Shown here: piece after piece, positions 14,302 through 62,266 of the stretch | How the letters are laid out: each line of letters opens with the position of its first letter | How positions within the stretch are numbered: position 1 is the first letter of the stretch | Source of the DNA: a virus | Lineage: Duplodnaviria > Heunggongvirae > Uroviricota > Caudoviricetes | IMG/VR virus record: IMGVR_UViG_3300013902_000267 | DNA length: 64,000 bases | Reading direction: 5' to 3' (one strand) | Notes under the pieces: model-generated | Databases searched by the model: none | Seen by the model: only the letters and a program-made list of their open reading frames with translations | Told to the model about the DNA's origin: nothing | Translations under genes and position numbers: made by a program

Positions 14302-14350
14302 AGATATACTAAATATATTCATTTATATTTGGTATATCTTTTTTTATTTA
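14302..14350 (+). terminator. Rho-independent terminator (AGATATAC ... GTATATCT, then TTTTTTATTT)
   Basis: 8-bp stem with a long loop and a T-run. Confidence 0.45.
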
Positions 14351-14389
14351 ATAAATATTTAAAATTTATTTAACTGAATTATATAATAT

Positions 14390-15286: not shown

Positions 15287-15292
15287 TAATAT

Positions 15293-16333: not shown

Positions 16334-16335
16334 TT

Positions 16336-37560: not shown

Positions 37561-37633
37561 TAACTTTAGTAATTTAAAATTATTAATTAAAATTTACATT
37601 AATATATATAATAACTTATTAAAAATGTTTAAT

Positions 37634-38197: not shown

Positions 38198-38202
38198 AAT
38201 AA

Positions 38203-38982: not shown

Positions 38983-39035
38983 TAAATAAAATACTTTTAT
39001 AAATTATATTCATTAGATGATTATTTGTTTGATAA

Positions 39036-46938: not shown

Positions 46939-47025
46939 AATTATACAAATATAATAAAAGGATATTATCAAATAAATCAAATATTTGGTAATATCCTCAT
47001 GTTATTAAAAATTAAATATTCATTA

Positions 47026-47262
47026 TTAATATACAAATTGAATCTTTGATTCAGCCATATTTGTGATACGCCATGAGAACATAGTACCACTCATTTGCTC
47101 AGTTACCTTGTGTTCACAATTTGTAACATTTGTAGCCTCAACAAGATGCACTTCCTTAATTTTCTTAGGCTTACCATTATCTGGATTTTCTCCATCAATA
47201 ACAACAGTACACATATAGAACTTATTGCCTTCTGATGGTTGCATTACTTTCATGTCTTCCAT
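47026..47262 (-). CDS. Hypothetical protein
   Basis: 78-aa ORF. Confidence 0.35.
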   Translation of the reverse strand: MEDMKVMQPSEGNKFYMCTVVIDGENPDNGKPKKIKEVHLVEATNVTNCEHKVTEQMSGTMFSWRITNMAESKIQFVY

Positions 47263-47457
47263 AAATTAAACAATTAAATTTGATTTTTTACTTCTTGCTT
47301 ATCCTTCTTAGTTTTAGTTTTTAAATTAATTATTTTTAAAAACCTATGTTTCTTGTTTCATAGACACACTACTTTTTAGTATAGTTATTATTTATAACTT
47401 CTGTCATCCATAGTTAGTATCTCCACAAGCGTAAATTCGGTAAAACTCAACCCTATT

Positions 47458-47772
47458 TTAAACTATTAAATTTAATTTTTTCTCTTCTTGCTTATCATTT
47501 TTATTCTTCATATTCTTTCTACTTTCAAAAAGTTTCTTATCATATGGACTTAATTCCCTACAATTAGCACATATAAAAACTTTCAATGGAACTTGTGTAG
47601 TTTCTGAACCTTGACCAATAAGCATGCCAGGAACTTTCTTAAAAATAATACCAGGTATAAAAACCTCACATCCACAATTTGGACATACTTCTGAAGGATA
47701 ATCTAACGGATTTACCGCTGGCATATTTGCATTAGTACCAGCGGCATTTCCAAATAGTTTGCTATTTTCCAT
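47458..47772 (-). CDS. Zinc-ribbon protein
   Basis: 'CPNCGCEV...CANC' motif. Confidence 0.4.
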   Translation of the reverse strand: MENSKLFGNAAGTNANMPAVNPLDYPSEVCPNCGCEVFIPGIIFKKVPGMLIGQGSETTQVPLKVFICANCRELSPYDKKLFESRKNMKNKNDKQEEKKLNLIV

Positions 47773-48881
47773 TAGTCAACTTTATTTTCTTCTTTTTCTG
47801 CATCAGCTGCAGCTTCTTCAGCCTCACGACGTGCAATAACAGCATCACGTTCATCAGATGGTACATCTGACAAAATTACACGATTCTTCTCAATCTTATG
47901 TACATATACCTGTACATTTGCACCTGCAGGAATTTCATTATTTCTCATTGCCTCGCGAGTCTCATCCTTTACAAGTGTCTTATGCAACATACCTGTAATA
48001 AACTCGTCAAGCTCGACGAACACACCAAATGAGGTTGTACCTGTTACTTTACCCTCAAATACATGGTCCTTATCATTCTCCAACAAATCCTCAAGTTCAC
48101 GAAGCTTGACTGGAAGCATTGTTCTCAAGAACTTCTTACGTGATACAACAAAACCATAATTTGGATCATAAGATTCAATCATAACCTCAAACTTAGTACC
48201 AACCATGCTCTCAAAATCAGTTACACGGTTAGCTGCTGCCATTGAACCAGGCATAAATGCCTTAACCGTATTCATAATATCAACAACAAATCCACCCTTA
48301 TTAGTAGACAAAATTGTTGCGTAATATGCCTTAGACTTCTTGGTAATCTGTTCCTTCATCTCTCTCTCAAGAGTTTCAACATAACCATTCCAGATAGACG
48401 CTTTCTCAACATCACCCTCTGTAATCTTAGCATTCAAATCCATACCAAGAAGTTGTTCCTTAAACTTAGGGTCCTTCAATGCGGTTACAAACATATCCTT
48501 ATCCATTGTCTTATCATCACCGACATTGAACTGATTAAAGAACTGATGTTCCTTATTAAGATCAACGATAACATTGTTAGAACCACCATTAATTGTCAAC
48601 ATCAATGTATCATCATCAATAGGATCAATATCAGAAATATGCACAAGTGCATTCTTAATAAGTTCCTTACTACCAATTACATGAACATTTGCATATGCAT
48701 CATACAAATCCTGTGCATAAGATTCATGACTATAAACTTTCTCGTTATTCTTTGTCTTAATATTCTTATTTACCTTAAGTGAAGTACCATTCCATCCATC
48801 ATCATATGGACTCCAATCAAATGAACCCGGTGTTGGTTCGCCCCATTCATAACGTTGGGTCAACTCATTAAATTTCGCCAT
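47772..48881 (-). CDS. S1-domain RNA-binding protein (ribosomal protein S1-like, about 3 S1 repeats)
   Basis: Repeated '...G.V..I...G.FV.L......GMLH' S1-like segments. 369 aa. Confidence 0.5.
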   Translation of the reverse strand: MAKFNELTQRYEWGEPTPGSFDWSPYDDGWNGTSLKVNKNIKTKNNEKVYSHESYAQDLYDAYANVHVIGSKELIKNALVHISDIDPIDDDTLMLTINGGSNNVIVDLNKEHQFFNQFNVGDDKTMDKDMFVTALKDPKFKEQLLGMDLNAKITEGDVEKASIWNGYVETLEREMKEQITKKSKAYYATILSTNKGGFVVDIMNTVKAFMPGSMAAANRVTDFESMVGTKFEVMIESYDPNYGFVVSRKKFLRTMLPVKLRELEDLLENDKDHVFEGKVTGTTSFGVFVELDEFITGMLHKTLVKDETREAMRNNEIPAGANVQVYVHKIEKNRVILSDVPSDERDAVIARREAEEAAADAEKEENKVD

Positions 48882-48950
48882 TAAATATTCGTTTTTAAAA
48901 AATTAAACTTAAAATTATCAAAAATTAAAAATTATTAAATATTAAATTAA

Positions 48951-49829
48951 TTACTGTTGTACTGTTGAAAGAACAGTAAATGATGTTTGATCAGTTGATT
49001 CAATTCTTACCTTTTGCTTTGAATCATTAGGTAATGTAATAATAATACTCTCTGCATCACCTTTAAGATTTACTGCTGTAAAGAAATTACTTCTGTAAAT
49101 AGGTATTGCATTTTCTGCACCTGTACCATCTTTCAAGAAACCAAGCAAATAATCATAAGATTCATTTGTATCATCATACGCATAAAGTGCCCATTTGCCT
49201 GTACCTTCATCAATCTTTGTATAGAACTTAATAATATCTTTCTTTGCATCTGTAACAAAAATAGAAGAAATATTAGTAAGATTCTTCAATACATTCATTG
49301 AAATCTCAAATGACATAGGATTTGCAATAACATTAATTCTATCAAAGAAAAGTTCATCTGATACTTGTTCAAACTCAGATATATTGCAATCCTTTACCTT
49401 CATTGTATTTGTACGAGATTTAAGTCTAATAGACTGTGCATGGAACTCATCTCCTACATGTCCCTTATAAACATCAAAATCTACATTCAATTGAAAATCT
49501 GTATCCTTGAAAATATCGATAACGGAAATAAATCGTGGAAGAATCATAAAGATACCAATCTTAATTCTTACATTATATTTCTCATTCCATTCATCAAGAG
49601 AATATGCAACATTATCATTATCTCTGATATTCAAAATTTCCAATCCAGCATTTTCAAAAGAAATCTTTGCATATTTAACTACAGTATGATCTGCAGTAAA
49701 ACCCTTTGAAACAAAGCATTGTTCTTTCAAATCACATTCTATGAGAAGTGAACTTTGGATTTCCTTAAAGGCTTTCAACCATGTAGAAAATCCTGCAGTT
49801 GTTCCTTTATTCTTAAATACTAAATTCAT
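48951..49829 (-). CDS. Hypothetical protein
   Basis: 292-aa ORF. Confidence 0.4.
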   Translation of the reverse strand: MNLVFKNKGTTAGFSTWLKAFKEIQSSLLIECDLKEQCFVSKGFTADHTVVKYAKISFENAGLEILNIRDNDNVAYSLDEWNEKYNVRIKIGIFMILPRFISVIDIFKDTDFQLNVDFDVYKGHVGDEFHAQSIRLKSRTNTMKVKDCNISEFEQVSDELFFDRINVIANPMSFEISMNVLKNLTNISSIFVTDAKKDIIKFYTKIDEGTGKWALYAYDDTNESYDYLLGFLKDGTGAENAIPIYRSNFFTAVNLKGDAESIIITLPNDSKQKVRIESTDQTSFTVLSTVQQ

Positions 49830-50134
49830 TATTAAATTATGTTAAAATTAAACGTTTATAATTATTAGATATTTAACTTAATAACAACATATACAAACTT
49901 TATAATATATGTGAAGTTAACCTAAGAAACTATATTATAATATAGAAGATAATTATCTAAATCTTATCTTATCTTTTTTTTAAAAATATAAATTAATTTA
50001 AATTCTATATGCATAATTTATAAACTAAATTCTTCCAATGACTTAAATTTATAAATACATAATGTATATAAAATAAATATATTCATATTTTAATATTTTA
50101 TTTATTATATTGATTAACTTATAAAAAGTTTATA

Positions 50135-50371
50135 TTAAATTCTTGAAAAATTTTTAATAATTGAATTTATACGTTTTGTATGTTTTAATTGTTGTTGTGT
50201 AGTTGGCCATTTAGTATATCCTCTGCTAAACCATGTATGAACAGCAATTAAATTTGTATCATAAAATTCATTTTTAATATCATTGCTATATATCGCTGAT
50301 GTTAATCCCGATAAATCAAATGTACAATTATTTTTTACAAAATCTGAATCATATAAATCTGTACCAAACAA
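50135..50371 (-). CDS. Hypothetical protein
   Basis: 78-aa ORF. Confidence 0.3.
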   Translation of the reverse strand: MFGTDLYDSDFVKNNCTFDLSGLTSAIYSNDIKNEFYDTNLIAVHTWFSRGYTKWPTTQQQLKHTKRINSIIKNFSRI

Positions 50372-50410
50372 ATAATATATAGGTGTATCAGATAAAATTA
50401 CTAATGCTTG

Positions 50411-51157
50411 CTACAATATATAATATGGTTCAAAATTAGGTTCTTCTTCATCTTTATAACTATATGGAATTTGATGGGGTTCAATTTTATTATCAGGATC
50501 ATCTCTTACTGTTTTACAATAAGGTGTCTCATGATTTGGTAAATCAACTCTTGTTTCTCGAAATATCTTTGCATTAGAAATCATTTTCATTGATTCTCCA
50601 TTCATATACTTATATAAATCTTTATCTTTATTGTTTATTAATTTATTGATAAATTCTTTATATAAAGTATTAGGATTTTTCTCAAATTCGTTTGATATAT
50701 ATGTAATTATATTATTAAAAGAAATATTTTTATCTCTTAATAATTTAATATTCCAAAAACTTAAAAAAGTATTAATCATAAAACGACTATGATTCCTATG
50801 ACAAAATACCCCACCATCTTGAGGACCTGCTATACAACAACCACTTTGTACAAAATTCTTAAATTCTTTTATTAAAGATTCAAAATCATTAATAAAACAA
50901 TCCTCATCTATATAAATTACATAATCAAAATTTTTATTAGATAACATATAACTAAACATTAATAAAAATGCATCTAACCCATAAAATGGCTTGTTATCTT
51001 TTATACCTGGAATAACCCAAAAATTTTGAATAGGTATATATTCTATATATGTCTTTAATGACGGTATTAACAATGAACTAGGTAAACATATTGAATTTGT
51101 TACAAAGCATACTTTATTCTATGATAACCATGTTTTAATCTCTACTATATTATCCAT
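50411..51157 (-). CDS. Putative DXD-motif glycosyltransferase-like protein with a TAG codon at position 13
   Basis: 'FDYVIYIDEDCFIND' DxD-like motif. In-frame extension through TAG to ATG (rc 51155-51157). Confidence 0.3.
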
Positions 51158-51209
51158 TTAAATAAAATTAAATTATTGTATATATTTTACTTTAAATTAA
51201 TAATAAAGT

Positions 51210-51518
51210 TTACAATGTTGATATATTAAAGCCACAATAACTCAATAAAATTACTATACGGATAAAATCTTGCATTTTAACATTTTCAAAATCTTTAACT
51301 TGCTCAAGATGTATCTTTAATAATTTTATATCTAATGGTTTATTTTCCTTATATAGTTTATATACATAATCATAACATATTTCAAAAAGTTCTTTTTCAC
51401 TTTTAGGCATATCACCATTAAGAATAGTATTCTTCATTTCTAAAGAATAATGGTCAAAGTCCATTTTCTCAAGGGACTTTGACCATTCATTAAAATCTTG
51501 TTTATTTGTTGTGTTCAT
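51210..51518 (-). CDS. Hypothetical protein
   Basis: 102-aa ORF. Confidence 0.35.
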   Translation of the reverse strand: MNTTNKQDFNEWSKSLEKMDFDHYSLEMKNTILNGDMPKSEKELFEICYDYVYKLYKENKPLDIKLLKIHLEQVKDFENVKMQDFIRIVILLSYCGFNISTL

Positions 51519-52227
51519 AATACTTTCTATACTCTTTGTATAATTTATCTATAATCAATTGGTTATCTAAATTTTCAATATGAATTTCATTTACCATTGC
51601 ACATAATTTCCATAATTCATATTGATTAATACCAGATTTTTCATAATCATGATACCATGTAGTTTCAGGAAACATCCATCCATCATCCTCGCCAATACCA
51701 AATATATGAATATCATTATGTAATTTATCTATAATTAATGATACACCACCATATGATTGACAATGACTATTATATGTAAAATGGTAAAGTCTTATAGAAG
51801 CTTCATCATAAAACCCTTTATCATAACAACCAAATGAATCCATCATATTACCTAAATAACACGGATCATAATCATATTCATATTTAACTTCTGCTAAATC
51901 ATTATACCAACGTGGTTGTCGATTTTTAATAACACCTATTTGAATAAGTTTATCTTCAATATCCTTATTATAAGGCCAATATTGCCATAAACAATTGCAT
52001 CCATAATGAGTTAATTCAGCAAATTTATATATATCATTCTGAATACATTCAAAGAATGGTGCATATTGCGTTTTATCTATATTATTTTCTTCAAAATATT
52101 TAAGATCATAACCACAACAACTACCATCTGCATCGGCAAGTAAATCTTCTTTCTGTTTATCAGATAATTCAGTTTTATTAAATATATATGGTAACCATTC
52201 AGAGCCTTTATTATAATCTAGAATCAT
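51502..52227 (-). CDS. Hypothetical Cys-rich protein
   Basis: 241-aa ORF. Confidence 0.4.
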   Translation of the reverse strand: MILDYNKGSEWLPYIFNKTELSDKQKEDLLADADGSCCGYDLKYFEENNIDKTQYAPFFECIQNDIYKFAELTHYGCNCLWQYWPYNKDIEDKLIQIGVIKNRQPRWYNDLAEVKYEYDYDPCYLGNMMDSFGCYDKGFYDEASIRLYHFTYNSHCQSYGGVSLIIDKLHNDIHIFGIGEDDGWMFPETTWYHDYEKSGINQYELWKLCAMVNEIHIENLDNQLIIDKLYKEYRKYYEHNK

Positions 52228-52478
52228 ATGGTACCTCCTTTCTTTATTAATATAGGTTTATAATAATCCTGAAAAAATTCAGGACATGCTAAAGGATTAA
52301 ATTCATTAGCTTTACGTAAATCTATATTTTCCCTTACATTTTTACAAAAAGGTTTAAGTACAGAAATTATATCATCTTCAAATATCTTTTCGCCTGTATT
52401 AATATCAACTAAACCAGTCCATGCAACATCTGATCTTTCAGATACCCATTGATTATTTTTATTTAGCCATGTTCTCAT
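52224..52478 (-). CDS. Hypothetical protein
   Basis: 84-aa ORF. Confidence 0.35.
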   Translation of the reverse strand: MRTWLNKNNQWVSERSDVAWTGLVDINTGEKIFEDDIISVLKPFCKNVRENIDLRKANEFNPLACPEFFQDYYKPILIKKGGTI

Positions 52479-52600
52479 TGTATAATTATCTTTTAGTTTT
52501 ACATTTAATTATACAAGATATTGAATAGAACAATAAATATATATATTCTATCCAATATCAGGCAGCCAGTTTCATTTATAGTTTGAAACAAACTTTTTAT

Positions 52601-52738
52601 TTATCGTACATCACCAGTAAAAATTGCCCATATAAACTGAAGTACCATTCCGATAACTCCAAATACTACAGGAATAATTACACATGCAAGTGCAAATACA
52701 GCAATCGCTATGATGATACCAAGTAAAAACATTATCAT
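52601..52738 (-). CDS. Small hydrophobic membrane protein (45 aa)
   Basis: MIMFLLGIIIAIAVFALACVIIPVVFGVIGMVLQFIWAIFTGDVR. Downstream of promoter-motif copy 6. Below the ORF-track cutoff. Confidence 0.35.
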   Translation of the reverse strand: MIMFLLGIIIAIAVFALACVIIPVVFGVIGMVLQFIWAIFTGDVR

Positions 52739-52773
52739 AATCTTTATATTTAAATTGTTAATATTTATGTTTA

Positions 52774-52796
52774 TTATTTACATTACAAAGATACAT
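52774..52796 (-). promoter_or_regulatory. Conserved promoter-like motif (ATGTATCTTTGTAATGTAAATAA), copy 6
   Basis: Same family as the other copies. Followed by TTAACAATTTAAATAT and then the ATG. Confidence 0.45.
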
Positions 52797-52834
52797 AATA
52801 TTTTCCTAAATAAAAAATATATTACCTAAAATTA

Positions 52835-53368
52835 TTAAGAATTTAAATAATTATGAAATGAACCATCATCAGAATCTCCAATAAGATTGTTCAATACATG
52901 CCAATACTCAAGATAACGCTTTGCTTTCTCCATATCCTGTGTTTCTTTCTCCTTATGGTCAGATCTCCAAATATACTTAAATGAATTCAACTTACAGAAA
53001 TCCATTGTTGCTTGTTTTCCAAATGTCTGAAGCATAGCTTCTATACATTGTAAGCCATTACCACCAGCGCCATAATGATTTGGATGTTCAACAACATTCA
53101 AATTCTGTGTACTAAAAATAGGATTTAATTTTGTCTTATGTAATTGTAAATGTGCAGGTTCATCCTTAAATACAATCTTCTCATAATTCAACGGTTCTCT
53201 ATTCTATTCAGCTACATTATCACTAATAGGTTCACCACATTTCTCGTCATTATCTGTTGCAACTTCATCGGTTCTATTAGAAACAAATACAATATCTTTA
53301 TCATCCTTTGTACGTGTAGGTTCACCATATACAGGTTCCTATGTACGAGTTTCCTTATTATAACTCAT
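52835..53368 (-). CDS. Phage protein (DUF3310-like C-terminal domain) with a TAG-containing N-terminal extension
   Basis: 'KYIWRSDHKEKETQDMEKAKRYLEYW' resembles the DUF3310 signature. Extends through two TAG to ATG (rc 53366-53368). Confidence 0.35.
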
Positions 53369-53413
53369 ATTATATCAATTAGTTTTCATTTATAATTATA
53401 CAGTAAAAATAAA

Positions 53414-53884
53414 TCATTGTTTAATAGATTTTAACGAAATTAATGTAGTTCCAGATAAATCTATTAAATCTTTTTCTTTTGATGAAAAATCTAATATATG
53501 TTGTGTATGAGTTTCTTTAATTATACCATCGTTTTCCTATATAGGTTCAGGTTCAATTAAATAAGATAACTATTCATTATTATCTTTTTTATGTATCATA
53601 TATAATGTATTCTGTTCTAACGCATCTTCTATTGAAAGTTCTTTAGTTGAACCATCAGCAAAATATGTTACGCTTGGTATTGGTGCATCTAAATCATAAT
53701 ACGTCTAAATAATATCATATTTAGACGTATCTATATCATTTATACTTTTAATATTAGTTAAATCATCTTCATCATTATTTTCATCTACAATATCTGACGT
53801 AATATCATTAACTCCTGTAAATTTTACTAATAGACAAAGAATAACAAAAAAACCTATACTTATTGATATTACTGGATCTATCAT
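53414..53884 (-). CDS. Membrane-anchored acidic protein; TAG-recoded (4 TAG)
   Basis: N-terminal TM 'ISISIGFFVILCLLV'. 157-codon frame found only when TAG is read as sense. Confidence 0.4.
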
Positions 53885-53913
53885 AATCTCTTATTTTATT
53901 AAATTAATAATTA

Positions 53914-54147
53914 TTATTTACTCTCAAAATTAATAGTTGATACATCTTCCACTTTTTCTTTTAAACTATCAACTGTTATTGTATGTGTATTCTGTTGCTC
54001 TTGTAATGAGTCTACAATGAATTCCTGTGTTTGCTTAATATGCTTTAGCTTCTCTTCATAATCAATACGGAGACGATTTGCAATTACAAGCATCATTATA
54101 AATCCTAATACAAATAAAACAATAAATACTGTTACTATTATATTCAT
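53914..54147 (-). CDS. Small membrane protein (one TM plus a coiled coil); spanin- or holin-like
   Basis: 'IIVTVFIVLFVLGFIMMLVIA' TM segment followed by a charged helix. Confidence 0.35.
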   Translation of the reverse strand: MNIIVTVFIVLFVLGFIMMLVIANRLRIDYEEKLKHIKQTQEFIVDSLQEQQNTHTITVDSLKEKVEDVSTINFESK

Positions 54148-54264
54148 ATTATTTTCTAATTAAAATTTTACTTTTTATTTATAGTATATTAAATCAATAA
54201 AGTTTATATATTAAAATAAAAAATGGATAGATAGTTAAACGAAAAAACTATCTATCCATCATAA

Positions 54265-55302
54265 TTATGCTTGATACGAATACTTGTCAAACAATGATTC
54301 AATATTAGAGGGATGCACAGCATTTATGCCGATTTCATTGCATTTTTTCAATGTATCATGGAAATCATCTATAAGACATACATCCTTAACATTCCACTTC
54401 ATTTTATGAGCAAACTGCTCAATAAAAACGTGCTTATAATTTTTATTTCCGACAAACATTCGGTTCTCAACAGGAATCTCTGGGAAATATTTATCAAGCC
54501 ATTCATTCTTCTCATTCCACGCTATTGAATTAGCACATGCAGTCACAATATAAACATTCTTCATGTCATAATGTTTCTTAACAAAATCAATGATATGTTT
54601 AACAGGCTTCAAATTTTTAAATAGTTCGCTACTTACAAAATCTGAATTTCCGTTAATATCAAGTTTTGCCTTGCCATAACAAGCTAATGTACCATCCATG
54701 TCAAGAAGTAAATACTTATTGGTAAAATAATCAACGCGAATGAATTCATCTACCAATGGGATGTACTTATTCTTACATGCTTCAATACGTAAATTTTTCT
54801 TATAAATATCTTCAATTGGAACTTTACGAGTTCTTCCTTGAAGTCTATTTATACAAACTTCTACAGGAGTATCAAAGAATATACAAGTAATCTTATCTAC
54901 ATTTTTATTTCTTAAATAATCTATAATACTAAGATTATAATGATTATTAATTCCACCGCCGTCAAGAATAACATTACAATTAATCTTTGAACTATCTGCA
55001 ATAGCAAAAATTATTTTTCGTGTTATTTGAACCGACTCTTCATGAACAACTTCCGGATGTTCATCAGTATAACCTTTTAACAATGGTTTAATTTCATCAG
55101 CAGAAATTACTATTGTTTCATTTATACAAAGATTATCTTCAATTGTCTGAATAATTTTATCTAAATTACATTCATCAAATGGTTTATCTAAAATAGATGT
55201 TAACCATTCAATGAGATGCAAAATATTTGGATAATTCTCTTGAAGATATGTACTTTTACCAGATGCAGGCAAACCGAGGAAGTACGAGAACTTACTGATC
55301 AT
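54265..55302 (-). CDS. pnk: Polynucleotide 5'-kinase/3'-phosphatase (T4 Pnk-like)
   Basis: N-terminal P-loop 'GLPASGKSTY'. C-terminal HAD phosphatase 'LLLDMDGTLA' resembles T4 'IFDVDGTLA'. 'CLIDDFHDTLKKCNEIGINAV' resembles T4 '[23 protein letters not shown]'. Confidence 0.7.
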   Translation of the reverse strand: MISKFSYFLGLPASGKSTYLQENYPNILHLIEWLTSILDKPFDECNLDKIIQTIEDNLCINETIVISADEIKPLLKGYTDEHPEVVHEESVQITRKIIFAIADSSKINCNVILDGGGINNHYNLSIIDYLRNKNVDKITCIFFDTPVEVCINRLQGRTRKVPIEDIYKKNLRIEACKNKYIPLVDEFIRVDYFTNKYLLLDMDGTLACYGKAKLDINGNSDFVSSELFKNLKPVKHIIDFVKKHYDMKNVYIVTACANSIAWNEKNEWLDKYFPEIPVENRMFVGNKNYKHVFIEQFAHKMKWNVKDVCLIDDFHDTLKKCNEIGINAVHPSNIESLFDKYSYQA

Positions 55303-55327
55303 AACTAAAATATAATTTAATTTTTAA

Positions 55328-56911
55328 TTAGTCAACAGTTCCATCAAGAAGTTTATGAACTGCATCTTGACGAGTCTTTCGGATTTCAGCAAGTGTAAAC
55401 TCTCTTACTAACTTACCATCTTCAAAAACAGTCTTCAATTCATTCTTATCTGATGCTTCCTCTTCAGGCGTTACACGATCAACTGGTACATACTTACCAT
55501 TACCATCTTTTACAACCATAAGAAGTCCACGATGTGATTTCTTTGGCATACCGCATACTGTTTTAGGATCCTTATAAATTTCTATAGGTTTGCCATTAAC
55601 TTTACACCATGTAGACTTACAGGCTATGCCTAAAGAATCTCTGGATCGTACATTATAAGTAAAGCTTCCTATACCTTCAATAAGGTTAGTTGCTGCGAAA
55701 CCCTTATCTTCAAGTTGAGAATATGTATCCTTTTGGCGTTTCATATTAATTGAGTCTCCATAAAGAAGTCCAATATGTGGATCAAGAATTTTATATCCTT
55801 TTTCATTAAATGTTCCACCGAACGTATTCCAAAGAAATTCATAAGAACCCATCTTTACAAATGGATCTTCTGCTTCCGGATCACCACAAATAATTTTAAC
55901 AGGATCACCACTATCAGGACGAATTACTACACGCCCATTACGAGACATAATTTGTTCTTTATACTTAGGAACAATCTTTGTCAAGAAATACCAATAATCA
56001 TAACCATCTGCAACAATTGAAATAATACCATCTGGAAATTCATCAAGCATATTCTTAAAATAAACTTCATCATTTGGCTTACCTGTTTCATCTGTTGCAT
56101 TAGAGCACTCAATAGAATGTTCAGTAGCTGGAACAGTTGCAGCTATCAATTCTTTTTTAGGATCTGCATTATAATAATACTCAATCATCTTAATTGCTGG
56201 AACTGTTTCAGAACCACAAAAAGAAGTAAGATGTGCCATACCAGAAACAATAGATGCTTCAAATGAACTCATTCCTCTCATAGAGAAATCATGACATAGA
56301 AATGCAAGATTAGACATATCGTTAGGATTATAAAAACCAGTTTTCATAGCATGTCTAACAAGTTCACGTTTAAATACATCAGCTGTTGTTGCAGAAGTAA
56401 TTGGAAGCCAAAGGACATTTGAAGTCAAAGACTCCAAATAATTTGTGAGCCAAGCAAAATCAGGATGTGTATTTGTGATTGTTAAAATAGGGCATCCGAT
56501 TGGACAATATGAACCTTCAGGAAGTGCCTTAATACGAATAGGAAGATAACCAAGTTTATGCAATGCAATAATATGATCAACCCCTACTTTCTTTGCAACT
56601 GCTTCTCCTAGAAATGTAGTTGTCAAATCTGTATAAGTTTTTCGTACAGTATCTTCATCAAGATTAAAGAAATAATTATTAAATGTATTAATAAGATACT
56701 TCTTAATAAAATACTGAATACCAAACACAACTGCTCCCTCTGTAGCTTCCGGAAAATATTTATTACTACGAGGAGTAAAGTTACTGAAAAGTTGCGTCAT
56801 TCCCTTAGGGTACATACAGTGATGACCAAGCTTGTAGCCATCTGTCATAAGCATTGCATTAAGAAGTATGTCTTCTACCAATACATGCTGTGAATCTTTT
56901 ACGTTTGTCAT
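55328..56911 (-). CDS. nadV: Nicotinamide phosphoribosyltransferase-family protein (NadV/NAMPT-like; a Namat-type enzyme cannot be excluded)
   Basis: 'MLMTDGYKLGHHCMYP' resembles the NAMPT N-terminal 'DSYKVTHYKQYP'. 527 aa. Confidence 0.65.
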   Translation of the reverse strand: MTNVKDSQHVLVEDILLNAMLMTDGYKLGHHCMYPKGMTQLFSNFTPRSNKYFPEATEGAVVFGIQYFIKKYLINTFNNYFFNLDEDTVRKTYTDLTTTFLGEAVAKKVGVDHIIALHKLGYLPIRIKALPEGSYCPIGCPILTITNTHPDFAWLTNYLESLTSNVLWLPITSATTADVFKRELVRHAMKTGFYNPNDMSNLAFLCHDFSMRGMSSFEASIVSGMAHLTSFCGSETVPAIKMIEYYYNADPKKELIAATVPATEHSIECSNATDETGKPNDEVYFKNMLDEFPDGIISIVADGYDYWYFLTKIVPKYKEQIMSRNGRVVIRPDSGDPVKIICGDPEAEDPFVKMGSYEFLWNTFGGTFNEKGYKILDPHIGLLYGDSINMKRQKDTYSQLEDKGFAATNLIEGIGSFTYNVRSRDSLGIACKSTWCKVNGKPIEIYKDPKTVCGMPKKSHRGLLMVVKDGNGKYVPVDRVTPEEEASDKNELKTVFEDGKLVREFTLAEIRKTRQDAVHKLLDGTVD

Positions 56912-57106
56912 AAAATAATTTGTTTAAATTTTAATTTGATTACAATAATAATTTGTTTGTTTAATTATCTTGTAATCATTATTTATATATATTATTAATT
57001 AAATTGTTTATAAAATTCATATTAAAAAAATAACATCCTATTTTCACAAACAAGATGTTAATAATTCAAAGACATATTTATTTGAAAATTAAGTTGCGAA
57101 ATTAAT

Positions 57107-57652
57107 TTATGCAGCCTGTCGAACTTCCCAATCAATAATATCAACAACATACTTTTCTTTGTTGATAGAAATTGACTTAATATTTTTAAGTGAAAGTGTT
57201 CTATACTCAATAACAGAAGTACTTGCCTTTTTCTTTGGCATGAATCTCTTCATATACACTTCATCTTCTGCAGAAATCTTCTCACCATTAAGAATAATAT
57301 TATTCTTTGAATAATTATTAGGAATGTAAATCAAACATACATTACCTGTACTAATATATTGCATAACAACATTCTTTACAAGATGACGGCGATTTGTATC
57401 TGTTGCCTTATAATCCTCACCAAGAATCTTACTCATTGTCTTTTCATAATCCTGTCCAAAATGGAAAGTAACTGAGAAATCTGTGCGTGGTTGAAATCCA
57501 TCCTTAATATGTTCCTTAGGAAGACCATCTGTATTAAACTTATTCAACTTAATATCAGACTCACCATATACAGTGACATACTTACCGTTGCACTTTGCGT
57601 TAGACATAAGCTCGATAAACTCATCTACTGTTGTAATAATATTGTTGTTCAT
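57107..57652 (-). CDS. Hypothetical protein
   Basis: 181-aa ORF preceded by promoter-motif copy 2. Confidence 0.45.
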   Translation of the reverse strand: MNNNIITTVDEFIELMSNAKCNGKYVTVYGESDIKLNKFNTDGLPKEHIKDGFQPRTDFSVTFHFGQDYEKTMSKILGEDYKATDTNRRHLVKNVVMQYISTGNVCLIYIPNNYSKNNIILNGEKISAEDEVYMKRFMPKKKASTSVIEYRTLSLKNIKSISINKEKYVVDIIDWEVRQAA

Positions 57653-57687
57653 ATTCTTTATATTTTTAATTGTTCAACTTAATTGTT

Positions 57688-57710
57688 TTATTAACAATAC
57701 AAAGATACAT
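57688..57710 (-). promoter_or_regulatory. Conserved promoter-like motif ATGTATCTTTGTATTGTTAATAA (copy 2)
   Basis: Identical to copy 1. Followed by AACAATTAAGTTGAACAATTAAAAATATAAAGAAT and then the ATG. Confidence 0.55.
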
Positions 57711-57888
57711 GTTTTATTTCAAATAAAAAAATATTAGAAGAAAAAATTAAATATTTTCTCTTAAAAATTTATCGATAAGTTTTTTAACACTATTACATTT
57801 ATATTGTGTTTCTACATAACTACCTGTCCAATCAGTATGAACATGAAAATTCTCAAGAAACCAGTTTGCAATCTTTTCTTTATCCATA

Positions 57889-58188
57889 TCAATAATCTTC
57901 TGCATCTCGTGAAACTCTCATATTCTTTAAATCATTAATGAGTTTTTCACACTCTTTTAACAATACATATATAGTAGAAATAATTATCACTATAATAAAT
58001 AATAATATTCCTAATGCTATATAAAACCCTGAATCTTCATAATTAGAAATAAACTTAAAACATGTAATTATATATGTAAAAGTAAATGGTATTACTAAAC
58101 ATAAAATCCAATTTATTATATGTCTCCATACATGTTTCTCTATATATTCGTTTCTCTCTTTATGTGATTTAAACCATTTATTTTCCAT
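57889..58188 (-). CDS. Hypothetical membrane protein
   Basis: 99 aa with two hydrophobic segments. Confidence 0.35.
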   Translation of the reverse strand: MENKWFKSHKERNEYIEKHVWRHIINWILCLVIPFTFTYIITCFKFISNYEDSGFYIALGILLFIIVIIISTIYVLLKECEKLINDLKNMRVSRDAEDY

Positions 58189-58229
58189 ATTTCCTATTTC
58201 TTTTTTACATCATCAATAGTTAGAATACG

Positions 58230-58415
58230 TCACTTTTTAATATAAAATTTCTTTATAGATGGAGATTCCTGTATTTCTTCAAATAATGAACATGGACTAA
58301 ACCAATTATGTACAGTCTTAGCATATTCCATTGCTGTCTCTTCTGAATCGCAAACTGCAGATAATTCACGATTATATTCGTCACATGTACGATAAACTTC
58401 TACAACTTCTTTCAT
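58230..58415 (-). CDS. Hypothetical protein
   Basis: 61-aa ORF. Confidence 0.3.
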   Translation of the reverse strand: MKEVVEVYRTCDEYNRELSAVCDSEETAMEYAKTVHNWFSPCSLFEEIQESPSIKKFYIKK

Positions 58416-58434
58416 AATTATATGTAATTTAAAA

Positions 58435-58623
58435 TTAATTATTCAAATGTATATCATTAATACATAAAGGGATAAAAATATAAAATATATTTTCTATATA
58501 TAATGATAAAATCAAATTCCATAAATTATCTATAGTTAACATATTATAATACCAAAATCCCAATATAGTTAGTACGCTACCTATGATAGAACATAAAATA
58601 GTAAATTTATATATTTGTTTCAT
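58435..58623 (-). CDS. Hypothetical small membrane protein
   Basis: 62 aa, hydrophobic. Confidence 0.3.
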   Translation of the reverse strand: MKQIYKFTILCSIIGSVLTILGFWYYNMLTIDNLWNLILSLYIENIFYIFIPLCINDIHLNN

Positions 58624-59009
58624 TCTTTAATTTTTCTACCTAAAATATTTTTTAACATCCATACCAACATATTAAATGCAACCAATAATTTATTTTCTGT
58701 ATCATCAGTCTCTTCTGAATGAACTATATTATCACCTTTCATATTTTCAAGTTTCACCGAATAACTATCAATAACCATATAATATTCTGTACTCATAGTC
58801 AAATCTTCAATACGACGGTATAAATCTTGAAGAGTATATGTATAATAACCTAATTTATACTTAACTAATTGTTCACAATAATCTTTGTGCATATTTACAT
58901 TATATTGATTTTTACCAATATAAATTAATGAAGCATCTGAAATATCAAGTCCAAGCTTCACCAATATATCCATATTATCTTTTGATAATGTAATTGTATT
59001 CTCTTTCAT
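58620..59009 (-). CDS. Hypothetical protein
   Basis: The ATG at rc 59007-59009 ('MKENTITLSKDN') is preferred over the track start at 59030, which lies inside the promoter motif. Confidence 0.4.
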   Translation of the reverse strand: MKENTITLSKDNMDILVKLGLDISDASLIYIGKNQYNVNMHKDYCEQLVKYKLGYYTYTLQDLYRRIEDLTMSTEYYMVIDSYSVKLENMKGDNIVHSEETDDTENKLLVAFNMLVWMLKNILGRKIKE

Positions 59010-59020
59010 ATATATAATTT

Positions 59021-59043
59021 TTATTAACAATACAAAGATACAT
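59021..59043 (-). promoter_or_regulatory. Conserved promoter-like motif ATGTATCTTTGTATTGTTAATAA (copy 3)
   Basis: Identical 23-mer, 11 nt upstream of the ATG at 59009. Confidence 0.5.
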
Positions 59044-59147
59044 ATTTTATTTTAAATAAAAAAGAGATATAACAAAATAATCTGTTATACCTCTTATAAA
59101 ATATATCTTAAAATAATAAAAAATTACATAATATATTGTAAAAGCAT

Positions 59148-60137
59148 CTATGTTTCCTCATCAGCTTTTAATTTTGGATATGCAGCTCTAAGTATCTGTA
59201 ATACACGTGTTTCTGTCATTCCATGTTCTTCTGCAACTTGCCATGTATTCTTTTCACCACGTCCATTAATACCATAGCAATCACATACAATTTCACCATC
59301 TCTTTCACCAAGAACTCTCTTTACATTATCTTCAAGTTCTCTTTCAAGATCAGCGTTATTAAGATTACTATCAGGGTCTTTAAATGTCCTATTAGCTGTT
59401 ACATCACCTAATGTTGTTTTAGAATCATCATCATCCCCGTATGATTTATCCAAACTATTTGCACGTGTATTTGCTTCCATTGTTTGTGCAAATGTTTCAT
59501 ATTTCAAATCTGGATGTTTCTTTACGAGAACATTATAAATATCATCAATATCAGGTTCATAACCATTCTTATTATATAATTGATCCTTGATACGAGCGGC
59601 TTCACGAGCAATACTACCCATATTACGGGGAACTGCCATATGTCCACCTACCTCATCAACAGCAGTCATAATTTCTCTACGAATATACCAAATAGCATAA
59701 GAAACAAAACGTACATCTTTACCTGGCAAACTTGGATCATATGTATCTGCTGCTTGCATAAGTCCTATATTTCCATATTGAATCATATCTTCCTTTGGTA
59801 TATTAATATTTTTATACTTATTGACAACAGAAATAACAAATGGAAGATTTGCGGACACCAACTTATTCTTTGCCTTTTCAATTTCTCTCTTATTATCAGA
59901 ATGTTGAATAATATCAGCAAGTTTCACTTCATCTGCATGTGATAATTGTTTTTTCTTATTAATAGCATGTAAATATGCAATAGTAGACTTTGCTGTATTT
60001 TCATCCTGTGTAATAGCAAAATCATCATGCAAATCCATATGCATTCCATTATTAGCTTCATTGAGTTTCTTTCTAATAGTCTTAGAAACATTTCTCATGA
60101 TACTTTCATACAATGTCTTCTTTTCATTTAACTTCAT
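59148..60137 (-). CDS. Sigma-70 family RNA polymerase sigma factor
   Basis: Region 2 'GNIGLMQAADTYDPS...RFVSYAIWYIRREI'. Region 4 'TWQVAEEHGMTETRVLQILRAAYPKLK'. 329 aa. Confidence 0.7.
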   Translation of the reverse strand: MKLNEKKTLYESIMRNVSKTIRKKLNEANNGMHMDLHDDFAITQDENTAKSTIAYLHAINKKKQLSHADEVKLADIIQHSDNKREIEKAKNKLVSANLPFVISVVNKYKNINIPKEDMIQYGNIGLMQAADTYDPSLPGKDVRFVSYAIWYIRREIMTAVDEVGGHMAVPRNMGSIAREAARIKDQLYNKNGYEPDIDDIYNVLVKKHPDLKYETFAQTMEANTRANSLDKSYGDDDDSKTTLGDVTANRTFKDPDSNLNNADLERELEDNVKRVLGERDGEIVCDCYGINGRGEKNTWQVAEEHGMTETRVLQILRAAYPKLKADEET

Positions 60138-60186
60138 ATCTTGATAAAAATTATTTCAATATTTTAAATATTTATCTTAAAATAAA

Positions 60187-60219
60187 AATAGAGAATAGTT
60201 ATCGCAACTACTCTCTATT
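60187..60219 (-). terminator. Terminator hairpin (AATAGAGA ... TCTCTATT) with a U-run on the minus strand
   Basis: 8-bp outer stem plus inner AGTT/AACT pairing. Confidence 0.45.
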
Positions 60220-60231
60220 TATAATTATCTA

Positions 60232-60789
60232 TTATTCTATATTTAATATTTGTTTAATCTTTACTATGTCATCCTGTGTTATACCTGAATAACTATCTAT
60301 TTTTATAAAGTTATCCTGTTGATATGTCATCATATCATCATCGTCATCTACTATACAATAATCTATTCTTAATTCATCATCTTTAAATTTAAAATAATCT
60401 TCATCATAAAATTGTTTATAGTTTCGCACATTTGTATTTCCGCTATACATAAGGAAATAATGAATTTCATTTCCTCTTATTGAGTGTTCATCATGATATT
60501 TTGGTGTTATACCTACTATATATTTAATTAAACATTTCAAATCTTTATACTTATCAAACGCATATTTTGTTGCTTCTAATGAAATCTCTCTCCATGACGA
60601 TGATATAACTAATCTTACATTATAATTCTCACATAATTGTTCTATAAGTTTTACTGCATTTTTGTCTACAAAATGATCACCATTTTCTTCATTTATATAT
60701 TTCTTTCCTTCCTTTGTAAAACACCAATTCGCATATTGTTCAGAATTCAAAACACCGTCTATGTCTAAAAATAATATTTTTATATTCAT
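60232..60789 (-). CDS. HAD-superfamily phosphatase
   Basis: 'ILFLDIDGVLN' HAD motif I. 185 aa. Confidence 0.55.
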   Translation of the reverse strand: MNIKILFLDIDGVLNSEQYANWCFTKEGKKYINEENGDHFVDKNAVKLIEQLCENYNVRLVISSSWREISLEATKYAFDKYKDLKCLIKYIVGITPKYHDEHSIRGNEIHYFLMYSGNTNVRNYKQFYDEDYFKFKDDELRIDYCIVDDDDDMMTYQQDNFIKIDSYSGITQDDIVKIKQILNIE

Positions 60790-62187: not shown

Positions 62188-62193
62188 ATATAG

Positions 62194-62266
62194 CAGGCCT
62201 GATGAGATTCGAACTCACAACAACATGATTAAAATTCGTGTGCTCTACCAATTGAGCTACAGGCCC
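62194..62266 (-). tRNA. tRNA-Lys (anticodon TTT)
   Basis: 5' GGGCCTGTAGCTCAATTGGTAGAGCA... T-arm GTGAG-TTCGAAT-CTCAT. Anticodon loop ATTTTAA. 73 nt. One C-A mismatch in the anticodon stem. Confidence 0.65.

Follow-up and report, generated by a model that had tools for sequence, protein, structure and literature searches.

A kinase–HAD gene adjacent to Namat and a dispersed RNA-repair gene set in Prevotella megaphage Lak-B7

Does the kinase-phosphatase gene at 54265–55302 heal RNA ends for the phage, as part of a repair toolkit scattered over the surrounding DNA, or does it belong with its immediate neighbor, a gene of NAD+ metabolism? The window, i.e. the whole stretch of 64,000 nt analyzed here, corresponds to positions 139512–203511 of the record of Prevotella megaphage Lak-B7, a giant gut phage; the GenBank records of Lak megaphages carry no annotation. 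A sequence-only reading had assembled four ORFs of the window into a dispersed RNA-repair toolkit (a T4 Pnk-like kinase-phosphatase, an Rnl2-type ligase, a minimal ligase and a Thg1-like enzyme). All four were found where that reading had placed them, on the same strands and with the domain types claimed; the two RNA ligases and the Thg1-like protein kept their place in the toolkit, while the label of Pnk for 54265–55302 was lost.

RNA-repair-type genes in the window and beyond

The larger ligase gene (42044–43555, minus strand; 503 aa) matches PF09414 (5e-6) and phrog_968 (1.6e-23). In its motif I, K244-W-H246-G247, positions K244, H246 and G247 are invariant in the family, as are E456, G457, V459 and K461 of the motif V region and K471/K473. 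A plain sequence search of PDB gave nothing useful, and the family profile reached the Naegleria gruberi RNA ligase (NgrRnl) with a marginal E-value of 0.13. On the other hand, a Foldseek search with the AF2 model (pLDDT 78) matched the same NgrRnl over the full length (1e-11, TMt 0.62); the second-best fold, T4 Rnl2, was matched in the NTase domain only (6e-7, ∼280 columns), and matches to DNA ligases were weak (at least 0.02). Members of the family match the PF21189 PHA02142 OB-fold; the NTase domain ends near residue 486 with no C-terminal domain after it. Judged by its modeled fold, this protein is an Rnl5-like RNA ligase with OB and NTase domains; thus, what had been said of an RNA ligase with a KxHG motif I was right (the motif is KWHG), but its assignment to Rnl2 was not. 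The family carries the annotation ‘RNA ligase’ in ∼296 mycobacteriophages. A role in RNA repair is reasonable because the family sits in ligase-RlaP-Pnk operons of other phages, with consecutive Rnl5-like ligase, RlaP and Pnk genes in contigs L062 and L063.

The smaller ligase gene (1713–2396, plus strand; 227 aa) had been read as a minimal KxDG ligase, and so it appears: PF09414 was matched above the cut-off of 27 bits (2.1e-8, 34.9 bits) and phrog_548 ‘RNA ligase’ with 2.9e-12, while motif I reads K26-L-D28-G29-Q-N with K26, D28 and G29 invariant in the family. Other invariant positions are located in FEWYG (E101), LIDV (D126), KEGVV (E185, G186) and K204-x-K206. The protein has neither an OB nor a C-terminal domain. 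No solved-structure relative was found by sequence search of PDB, and profile–profile comparison with the larger ligase gave no significant link (hhalign probability 1%); contig L070 has a gene cluster in which the small ligase, the large-ligase family and an HD-kinase gene occur together. By its sequence features, it is a stand-alone NTase of the RNA-ligase family. In profile and fold searches, the ligases fell with RNA ligases and not with DNA ligases or capping enzymes.

The Thg1-like protein (TLP; 46126–46938, minus strand), a predicted 3′-5′ nucleotidyltransferase, is 270 aa long if counted from ATG; an alternative TTG start is present at 46980. Its attribution to the Thg1 superfamily was confirmed by matches to PF04446 Thg1 (2.9e-25, 89 bits), phrog_4717 (1.8e-54) and Bacillus thuringiensis TLP (BtTLP, 4KGK; 1.3e-25 over residues 5–228); its score was 93 bits to BtTLP versus 28–32 bits to Thg1 enzymes. 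The carboxylate motifs DG and SDE are conserved and align with those of BtTLP; at the site of HINNLYN in Candida Thg1, we saw IRNSKQQ in the window protein and ASKNSIS in BtTLP. We characterized the protein, from these alignments, as a solid bacterial-type TLP, not one of the eukaryotic Thg1 type. Enzymes of the BtTLP type reportedly perform templated 3′-5′ repair of 5′-truncated tRNA. The notion that a Thg1-like protein is unusual in a phage was overstated: homologues are present in 148 of 50,697 phage records, mostly annotated already, and the repair role of such proteins in phages, along with the link to Pnk and RNA ligase, was published in 2010 and 2021.

A fifth repair-type component, missed by the sequence-only reading, would be the gene at 60232–60789 (minus strand; phrog_1818). 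It codes for a HAD phosphatase that stands alone and belongs to the Swiss Army Knife (SAK) RNA-repair family, with a match to PF18143 HAD_SAK_2 of 4.7e-18 and 66.3 bits (cut-off 27.5); in other viral contigs, such a gene is again found close to Namat and TLP. A calcineurin-like metallophosphoesterase, weakly assigned (38203–38982, minus strand; PF00149 1.1e-7, no NCBIfam or PHROG match), could be an additional end-healing phosphoesterase, the role being taken by analogy with certain jumbo phages, whose RNA repair is stated to involve calcineurin-like phosphatases (PMC7824862). The phage tRNA genes drawn into the proposed pathway are there as well: ARAGORN predicted two in the window, tRNA-Gln(CTG) (33–104, plus strand), the final gene of the main 21-tRNA cluster that spans 125290–139615 of the record, and the isolated tRNA-Lys(TTT) (62193–62266, minus strand), out of 33 genome-wide. 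Outside the window, Lak-B7 codes for a canonical Pnk (record 482917–483858, 290 kb from the kinase–HAD gene) and for an RlaP-like nucleotidyltransferase (record 544920–547217). In other phages, RlaP directly adjoins canonical Pnk (contigs L051, L054, L059 and L064), and the TLP gene of an Omegavirus is four genes away from a Pnk of canonical type.

The four genes of the original proposal do not make an operon; their relative positions shift by hundreds of kilobases between Lak clades. With no conserved co-location, their joint action is something that we infer. None of the four ORFs contains an in-frame TAG, a codon that Lak-B7 recodes in other genes; this absence suggests that expression of the repair genes precedes the switch of genetic code. 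The dispersed RNA-repair toolkit is real, of a known kind and ordinary for big phages; with the ligase subtype corrected, Lak megaphages join the known large phages that carry repair suites of Pnk, ligase, RlaP and Thg1.

The kinase–HAD protein and its neighborhood

The kinase–HAD gene (54265–55302, minus strand) codes for a protein of 345 aa with an N-terminal AAA_33-type P-loop kinase of the Pnk clade and a C-terminal cap-less HAD phosphatase. In the kinase part, G15, K16, D69 and R153/R157/R159 are invariant among 27 family members, and D69 and K72 line up with the motif SDFCR of Clostridium thermocellum (Cth) Pnkp; in the HAD part, D201-M-D203-G-T205 (DMDGT), K290, D312 and D313 are invariant or nearly so in the family alignment. 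All catalytic residues are intact. In most family members, the P-loop is followed by a variable insert of up to ∼40 residues, which is missing in some. A plain sequence search of PDB found no Pnk; the best match was 3BWV, a deoxyribonucleotidase-like protein. In Pfam, the match was to NT5C (1.7e-7); the HAD core resembles these mononucleotidases more than it does the phosphatase of Pnk. The family profile, run against PDB, reached the Cth Pnkp kinase (1.8e-11), PSTK (9e-10) and T4 Pnk (4.6e-9), the last over the kinase and the DxDxT region only.

The canonical Pnk of Lak-B7 behaves differently: its plain search returned Pnkp1 (1.1e-19) and T4 Pnk (1.3e-13), both over the full length. The two Lak-B7 proteins share 26% identity over 117 aa. 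As far as sequence comparison can tell, kinase–HAD constitutes a family distinct from canonical T4 Pnk and remotely related to it, and the true Pnk/Pnkp1 orthologue of Lak-B7 is the gene at 482917–483858 of the record. The claim that 54265–55302 is the equivalent of T4 Pnk has to be withdrawn. Its family turned out to be linked to NARP1 and not specifically to ligases.

The NARP1 pathway uses ADP-ribose and nicotinamide to make NAD+ anew when host NADases have attacked; its enzymes are Adps and, as the second, Namat, a NAMPT-like nicotinamide ADP-ribose transferase. A gene with the Pfam domains NAMPT_N and NAPRTase (55328–56911, minus strand) is located 26 nt upstream of kinase–HAD on the same strand. 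This protein matched the PDB entries 9W5X/9W5W, structures of SpbetaL1 Namat (PMC12774641), with 1.5e-136 and 459 bits, against ∼206 bits for true Nampt; on these scores, it is classified as a Namat-type, not a Nampt-type, transferase. The sole PRPS-like gene of Lak-B7, the presumed Adps, is at 419730–420596 of the record, 225 kb from Namat. The ORF at 4584–5075 was considered as an NMNAT that would complete a NARP2 route, but it codes for a CoaD-type pantetheine-phosphate adenylyltransferase (132 bits, over the cut-off), and the idea was rejected.

In a comparison of contigs with members of the two kinase families, Namat was part of the locus in 13 of the 15 distinct contigs with kinase–HAD and in none of the 18 with canonical Pnk (Fisher p = 1.8e-7, with contigs that are not phylogenetically independent, as many may come from related phages). 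Canonical Pnk was found instead in ligase-RlaP-Pnk arrays, and all such arrays with abutting or overlapping genes contained canonical Pnk only. An RNA ligase or RlaP within 10 kb was about as frequent in either set (4/15 kinase–HAD contigs versus 6/18 for canonical Pnk; p = 0.72). NARP1 and repair modules share genomic islands; therefore, proximity alone cannot separate them. In six lineages, the PRPS-like, kinase–HAD and Namat genes are consecutive or overlapping (L027, L029/L145, L030, L035, L018 and L019). L029/L145 is IMG/VR record IMGVR_UViG_3300022916_000006, and its gene at 9950–10918 codes for a short relative of the window protein. Kinase-only genes are also present at the NARP1 locus, one abutting Namat in L037 and another on its downstream side, at ∼1 kb, in L036. 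The linkage of kinase–HAD to NARP1 persists where genes have been reordered or homing endonucleases inserted. Seen from the other side, the combination is rare: kinase–HAD was present in 1 of the best 80 Namat loci.

An apparent kinase–Namat fusion in L037, which could have served as a ‘Rosetta stone’, was rejected, as a TAG separates the two ORFs and serves as a stop codon in this contig. The kinase model also found a match in BFVD, a 648-aa protein that bears the name NAMPT and could be either a real fusion or an artefact of the L037 type.

Two proposed counter-defence toolkits and the competing explanations

We lean, with some reserve, toward the view that two counter-defence toolkits are present here: the dispersed RNA-repair set, and the Namat/kinase–HAD pair acting as a NARP1 accessory module. 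The first would comprise the Rnl5-like ligase, the small NTase, TLP, the SAK HAD, canonical Pnk and the RlaP-like nucleotidyltransferase, and most likely heals, refills and seals tRNAs cut by host ribonucleases; we infer this role from the biochemistry of the families and from the ligase-RlaP-Pnk operons in other phages. The second, running from 56911 down to 54265, would be a toolkit of NAD+ rescue. The kinase–HAD protein is best read, on sequence and gene context, as a rare and apparently undescribed NARP1 accessory and not as the tRNA end-healing enzyme of the phage; no paper bringing together ‘NARP1’ and ‘polynucleotide kinase’ was found in the text-searchable literature. This reading has a precedent, and draws on it, in Macro Adpp and RyDEP, accessory enzymes inserted in NARP1 operons that channel non-canonical NAD+ products into the pathway. 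The most likely task of kinase–HAD is to make a phosphorylated or otherwise unusable breakdown product of NAD(P)+ available to NARP1 as a substrate, to re-phosphorylate a product, or both. It is not the known NARP1 phosphatase Adpp itself, a candidate that was rejected since Adpp has a Macro domain and does not belong to the HAD proteins.

One could speculate further, though we hold this to be somewhat short of probable, that an operon of PRPS-like/Adps, kinase–HAD and Namat represents a third kind of extended NARP1, in which the HAD domain removes a phosphate that blocks an NAD(P)+ product, and the kinase regenerates a phosphorylated cofactor or intermediate. The HAD targets could be 2′-phospho-ADP-ribose, derived from cleavage of NADP+, or ADPR-1′′-phosphate, produced by RES-type enzymes; the kinase domain could regenerate a cofactor such as NADP+ or phosphorylate an intermediate. 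Such an operon would let the phage restore its pyridine nucleotides where an attack is beyond the reach of plain NARP1. TLP and SAK HAD recur beside Namat, a hint that a single island may serve to deploy both RNA repair and NAD+ rescue.

The strongest competitor, to which we give about one chance in four, sees in kinase–HAD another, divergent polynucleotide kinase-phosphatase, one that would prepare broken RNA (or DNA) ends for sealing by the phage ligases; its proximity to NARP1 would then reflect no more than a pile-up of genes in an anti-defence island. The nearest solved kin of the kinase domain are polynucleotide and tRNA kinases, as the profile matches to Cth Pnkp, PSTK and T4 Pnk indicate; the AF2 model of the protein (pLDDT 90.8) has Pnkp1, T4 Pnk and phage PseT proteins as the top full-length, two-domain folds; phrog_505 and phrog_415, which it matches, are both named ‘polynucleotide kinase’; and the DxxK/R motif and the lid arginines are conserved as in Pnk. 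Such kinship and fold fit an RNA- or DNA-end substrate and thus count against a NARP1 accessory. Furthermore, an RNA ligase and RlaP are a few kilobases away from kinase–HAD in L014/L028, L016 and L021, and Lak and L036 have SAK HAD and TLP in the vicinity. However, a canonical Pnk is already encoded in the genome, and it is this type, not the kinase–HAD family, that the tight ligase-RlaP-Pnk operons hold; in six lineages, kinase–HAD has the PRPS-like and Namat genes on either side or overlaps them, and Namat shows the 13/15 versus 0/18 distribution described above; and its HAD core is closer to NT5C mononucleotidases than to the phosphatase of Pnk.

A different doubt concerns the first toolkit. 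It seems rather improbable to us that the ligases and TLP serve the phage’s own nucleic-acid transactions (e.g. RNA-primed nick sealing in replication, RNA processing related to introns or homing endonucleases, maturation of an odd tRNA-His) and not counter-defence tRNA repair. The large ligase and TLP have a DnaB-like helicase and a LAGLIDADG endonuclease as their neighbors rather than further repair genes, and Rnl5 enzymes are established as sealing duplex nicks with a 3′-OH RNA strand, both as expected from such a role. The sole tRNA-His gene of the phage has an irregular acceptor stem and a C discriminator, and templated addition of G-1 opposite this C would suit a TLP; but G-1 is encoded in the gene already, so that its addition by TLP would not be required. 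As to tRNA 5′ editing as a task for TLP, we rejected it because the acceptor stems of 29 of the 32 parsed tRNAs (33 predicted by ARAGORN) contain only Watson–Crick or G-U pairs, with no sign of systematic 5′ editing. Also, genes of the large-ligase family share operons with RlaP and Pnk elsewhere among phages, and TLP is found near Pnk there.

Finally, that kinase–HAD is a nucleotide-pool enzyme, a nucleoside/(d)NMP kinase joined to a 5′(3′)-(deoxy)nucleotidase working on DNA precursors or on nicotinamide riboside/NMN and having no part in repair or NARP1, is very improbable: apart from the NT5C and 3BWV matches, it is favored by weak matches to UMP-CMP, adenylate and dNK kinases, by the JGI label of a homologue (‘5′(3′)-deoxyribonucleotidase/predicted kinase’) and by phage NadR-like P-loop kinases that act on nicotinamide riboside, but the NMP-kinase matches are weaker than the Pnk-clade ones, no significant relationship to NadR or AAA_28 was found, a kinase and a nucleotidase acting on one mononucleotide would run a futile cycle, and the HAD domain, as inspected by motif spacing and in the AF2 model, is devoid of the NT5C helical cap.

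The re-assignment of kinase–HAD is, in our view, more useful than the RNA-repair part. Depletion of NAD+ is among the commonest anti-phage strategies of bacteria. Each accessory seen so far in NARP1 operons, Macro Adpp and RyDEP, has exposed a new way in which the host destroys or uses NAD+; therefore, a conserved kinase-phosphatase placed between Adps and Namat predicts a further NAD(P)-derived metabolite. The annotation chain ‘kinase plus HAD, hence Pnk, hence RNA repair’ can mislead, because two paralogous kinase–HAD families in one genome have different partners.

Comparison with known systems

Both window ligases share PF09414 with T4 Rnl2, whose motif I, KIHG, is matched by the KxHG of the large ligase; the C-terminal helical domain of Rnl2 is missing from both, the large ligase having an N-terminal OB domain instead and the small one being an NTase domain alone. 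With Rnl5 (Naegleria gruberi NgrRnl, Deinococcus DraRnl), the large ligase has in common the order of an N-terminal OB and an NTase domain with no C-terminal module; it differs in being ∼160 residues longer, with a low-confidence linker at 186–226, and in its Rnl2-like motif KWHG in place of the KxDG of Rnl5.

The closest known relatives of the window TLP are BtTLP and the phage ‘tRNA-His guanylyltransferases’. Like BtTLP, it keeps the carboxylates and is devoid of the HINNLYN motif of tRNA-His anticodon recognition; it is ∼25–30 residues longer than BtTLP, with an insert at ∼120–140. Mycobacteriophages of the Omega type (Omegavirus), though unrelated to Lak, have the same trio of Pnk, RNA ligase and TLP families; their kinase is of the canonical Pnk type, and their genes are closer together than those of Lak-B7. 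The Pnkp of Omega has been characterized biochemically.

Kinase–HAD has the domain order of T4 Pnk (PseT) and Capnocytophaga Pnkp1, a P-loop kinase followed by a DxDxT HAD, and their P-loop, Asp general base, basic residue at +3 and lid arginines. In contrast, there is no full-length sequence relationship that would indicate orthology, the family mostly carries the insert after the P-loop, its HAD core is nearer to NT5C, and its genes are in NARP1 arrays, not with ligase and RlaP.

In comparison with the NARP1-AP and RyDEP operons, kinase–HAD is likewise an extra enzyme inserted in the operon, as seen in its relatives, with Namat directly upstream; the insert is a fusion of a Pnk-clade kinase and a HAD, whereas theirs is a Macro domain or an RyR-domain glycosidase, and in Lak-B7 a distance of 225 kb separates the PRPS-like gene from Namat.

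A kinase-phosphatase distinct from the canonical Pnk of the phage

The window matched Prevotella phage Lak-B7 (MK250026.1, a GenBank record without annotation) at 100% identity, its start falling at record position 139512; its GC content is ∼27%. Since Lak phages recode TAG, ORFs were re-derived with TAG as a sense codon. The boundaries of the four ORFs selected in the sequence-only reading (a kinase-phosphatase, two ligases and a Thg1-like protein, TLP) were stable under this change; none has an in-frame TAG.

The 345-aa product of 54265-55302 (−) combines a P-loop kinase half with a HAD half carrying DMDGT. Plain searches with this kinase-HAD sequence found only NT5C-type nucleotidases (PF06941, 1.7e-7; 3BWV, 6.7e-5), with AAA_33 sub-threshold and no match to T4 Pnk. 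The family profile ranked the Clostridium thermocellum Pnkp kinase (1.8e-11), tRNA(Sec) kinase (9e-10), T4 Pnk (4.6e-9, residues 1-173 to 1-174) and Pnkp1 (3.7e-6) above NMP kinases; all catalytic residues were invariant among the 27 aligned family members. A confident AlphaFold model (pLDDT 90.8) had its best full-length matches in Pnkp1 and T4 Pnk (PDB) and in phage PseT/Pnk proteins (BFVD). Given this ranking and the full-length fold matches, the predicted assignment as a kinase-phosphatase of Pnk architecture, with a kinase of the Pnk clade, holds.

A search of every ORF of the assembled Lak-B7 genome with the family profile revealed a second kinase-HAD ORF outside the window, at record 482917-483858 (L011 34717-35658, −). 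By plain sequence search its product gave full-length alignments to Pnkp1 (1.1e-19) and T4 Pnk (1.3e-13), which identifies it, at sequence level, as the true Pnk orthologue of Lak-B7. The window protein shares with it 26% identity over just 117 residues. Thus, the earlier label ‘T4 Pnk-like’ for 54265-55302 was right about architecture and kinase clade, while orthology to Pnk belongs to the second gene.

Linkage of the kinase-HAD family to NAD+-reconstitution genes

The NAMPT-like gene 55328-56911, 26 nt upstream of the kinase-HAD gene, scored 459 bits to PDB 9W5X/9W5W (structures of SpbetaL1 Namat) versus ∼206 bits to bacterial and human Nampt; its product is predicted to be Namat. Together with the PRPS-like Adps, Namat constitutes NARP1, a pathway that uses ADP-ribose and nicotinamide to rebuild NAD+ once NADase defences have acted. 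The only PRPS-like gene of Lak-B7, presumed Adps, is outside the window (record 419730-420596; L010 21330-22196, +); in contigs L018 and L019, homologues of this gene lie next to the kinase-HAD/Namat pair.

Neighbourhoods were sampled from seven divergent kinase-HAD family members (35-48% identity, long contigs) and then from 45 IMG/VR loci. A NAMPT-like gene, usually with a PRPS-like gene, was present in 13 of 15 distinct kinase-HAD contigs, while NAMPT or PRPS genes were found in 0 of 18 canonical-Pnk contigs (Fisher p = 1.8e-7, for contigs that perhaps represent related phages). PRPS-like, kinase-HAD and NAMPT-like genes are consecutive, often overlapping, in L027, L029, L030 and L035; L018 and L019 carry the same three in permuted order. 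At two more NARP1 loci a kinase-only gene abuts the NAMPT-like gene (L037) or lies ∼1 kb downstream of it (L036). Around canonical Pnk we saw RlaP directly upstream in six contigs, with Rnl5-like ligase, RlaP and Pnk being consecutive genes in L062 and L063; the Omegavirus Pnk near a TLP is of this canonical type. Gene neighbourhoods, then, separate the two families.

The Namat-centred survey (80 best IMG/VR loci) found a PRPS-like partner in 74 loci and kinase-HAD in one; therefore, kinase-HAD is best seen as a rare accessory dependent on NARP1, and not the reverse.

The adjacent genes in L037 do not form a fusion, since this contig uses TAG as a stop codon. The kinase-HAD model also aligned with a 648-aa viral ‘nicotinamide phosphoribosyltransferase’ (BFVD A0A8S5VCN3), which represents either a genuine kinase-Namat fusion or a gene call reading through a TAG of the L037 kind. 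In Lak-B8 (L068 1128-2075) a 946-bp insertion, absent from Lak-B7, sits exactly in the 26-nt Namat/kinase-HAD spacer (window 55322-55334) and carries pieces of a LAGLIDADG-type ORF (‘GFFIADGC’). In the other Lak-B genomes this 14-kb region likewise contains additional sequence of comparable size, the position being mapped in B8 only; in L021 and L014 this junction holds HNH and T5orf172-type endonuclease genes.

One could also suppose that kinase-HAD may act on RNA ends. The frequency of an RNA ligase or RlaP gene within 10 kb is similar for kinase-HAD (4/15 contigs) and canonical Pnk (6/18). Near Namat, TLP was found in 4 of 80 loci and the RNA-repair phosphatase SAK-HAD in 5 of 80, as well as in L036 and in Lak (window 46126-60789); such genes lie within a few kb of Namat in the unrelated contigs L109 (PRPS-like, Namat ... 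SAK-HAD, TLP, RlaP), L122, L137, L143 and L036. Because of both observations, the RNA-repair and NAD+ toolkits occupy common islands; the recurrence of TLP and SAK-HAD near Namat suggests a joint deployment of RNA repair and NAD+ rescue or an unrecognised functional tie.

RNA ligases, Thg1-like protein and other repair genes

The large ligase, 42044-43555 (−), 503 aa, matched PF09414 RNA_ligase over residues 239-472 and phrog_968 ‘RNA ligase’ (1.6e-23). Its family (>2000 matches) is conserved throughout, the N-terminal 230 residues included, with K244, H246 and G247 (motif I, KWHG) and motif V residues invariant; family members match PF21189 (PHA02142 OB-fold). With the AlphaFold model (pLDDT 78; linker 186-226 disordered) the Rnl5 prototype, Naegleria gruberi RNA ligase, gave a full-length match (E 1e-11, TM 0.62 on target), whereas T4 Rnl2 aligned in the NTase domain only (6e-7) and DNA ligases scored 0.02 or worse. 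On these grounds the protein is an RNA ligase of Rnl5 architecture; the motif noticed earlier stands, the Rnl2 subtype does not. Relatives occur in 379 phage records, ∼296 of them mycobacteriophages, where they are annotated ‘RNA ligase’.

The small ligase, 1713-2396 (+), 227 aa, agreed with its description as a minimal KxDG enzyme: it matched PF09414 (34.9 bits, cut-off 27) and phrog_548 ‘RNA ligase’, has a single domain, and keeps motifs KLDGQN, FEWYG, LIDV, KEGVV and KxK invariant among 26 family members. Sequence search found no relatives of solved structure, and its profile had no significant match to that of the large ligase. The family is almost restricted to megaphage-type contigs. The only contextual evidence for a repair role is the unrelated contig L070, with a second small paralogue, a large-ligase-family member and an HD-kinase gene within 5.5 kb. 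A run of metabolic genes just past the small ligase, 2838-5938 (+), encodes HisG ATP-phosphoribosyltransferase (above the NCBIfam cut-off), Ham1/ITPase, CoaD-type pantetheine-phosphate adenylyltransferase and a protein with weak resemblance to PurC/SAICAR synthetase; in a phage, HisG and CoaD are unexpected.

The firmest of all predictions is the TLP at 46126-46938 (−), as proposed before: PF04446 (2.9e-25), phrog_4717 ‘tRNA-His guanylyltransferase’ (1.8e-54) and Bacillus thuringiensis TLP 4KGK (1.3e-25, residues 5-228; true Thg1 enzymes ∼1e-5 to 6e-7). Since 4KGK matches, the carboxylate motifs DG and SDE are retained and BtTLP-like IRNSKQQ replaces eukaryotic HINNLYN, the protein is of bacterial TLP type, a type known to mend 5′-truncated tRNAs (PMC3061083). 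Its occurrence in a phage is not very unusual, contrary to first impression: tblastn found homologues in 148 of 50,697 deposited phage records, mostly annotated already (Bacillus, Mycobacterium, Caulobacter, Erwinia, Vibrio and jumbo phages among them). A 2010 paper described a TLP in phage 201phi2-1 with a gene-neighbourhood tie to polynucleotide kinase and RNA ligase; a 2021 study, its dataset including Lak-B8, described TLPs as sporadic in jumbo phages and restoring 5′ ends.

The first reading overlooked a stand-alone SAK-HAD, from the RNA-repair family named ‘Swiss Army Knife’, at 60232-60789 (−; 66 bits), adjoined by a sigma-70-like factor gene (regions 2-4; 59124-60137, −). A calcineurin-like phosphoesterase, 38203-38982 (−), may perhaps be a further repair component; it lies in a cluster with TelA and a CNNM/CBS membrane protein (36439-40082, −). 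An RlaP-like nucleotidyltransferase ORF (∼766 codons stop to stop) is outside the window, at record 544920-547217 (−). At 32780-34816 (−) a 678-aa product resembles, by eye only, an Hsp90/HtpG-type chaperone (motifs similar to ‘EIVSNAVDA’ and ‘GHFGLGFYS’).

None of the 33 tRNA genes of Lak-B7 encodes CCA. Acceptor stems are mostly clean and so give no hint of systematic 5′ editing. The single tRNA-His (record 422521-422594; L010 24121-24194) has an encoded G at −1, a C discriminator and an irregular acceptor stem, forming seven Watson-Crick pairs only with one 3′-strand U bulged.

Arrangement, recoding and a proposed scheme

The repair genes are indeed dispersed and form no operon: in Lak-A the four genes are hundreds of kb apart and in a different order. 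Neighbours of the large ligase and TLP encode a LAGLIDADG endonuclease, a DnaB-like helicase and an S1-domain protein.

TAG-rich genes adjoin TAG-free ones, all repair and NAD genes being TAG-free. Genes with many in-frame TAG codons are at 10270-19425 (+; the 1029-aa ORF 16336-19425 has 19), 23567-28901 (−), 40811-41974 (−; the LAGLIDADG homing endonuclease gene directly downstream of the large ligase, with 7) and 62683-63897 (+). This pattern fits recoding that affects only some genes, presumably the late ones; early expression of the four genes, ahead of the code switch, would fit their TAG-free state. The expected suppressor tRNA (anticodon CTA, reading TAG) is at record 414053-414125 (L010 15653-15725). 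A tRNA with anticodon TTA, which would read TAA, is at record 345556-345628 (L008 46756-46828), although the window chiefly uses TAA as its stop codon.

We propose that tRNAs cut by host nucleases would have their ends healed by canonical Pnk and SAK-HAD, lost nucleotides refilled by RlaP or TLP, and the break sealed by the Rnl5-like ligase, perhaps also by the small one. Namat would rebuild NAD+ together with Adps, supplied from another locus of the genome, and kinase-HAD would adapt NARP1 to a breakdown product that is phosphorylated or non-canonical; one could speculate about 2′-phospho-ADP-ribose, ADPR-1′′-phosphate or NADP+ regeneration.

The RNA-repair suite of Lak-B7, not annotated before, is of a kind already well described. 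The original NARP preprint makes no mention of a kinase or phosphatase, and no paper in the searchable literature was found to combine ‘NARP1’ with ‘polynucleotide kinase’; as far as that literature goes, the PRPS-like/kinase-HAD/Namat arrangement appears to be an undescribed NARP1 variant. Accessories of NARP1 in print are a Macro-domain ADPR-1′′-phosphatase and a RyR-domain cADPR glycosidase, whereas the putative one of the window is a kinase-HAD protein.
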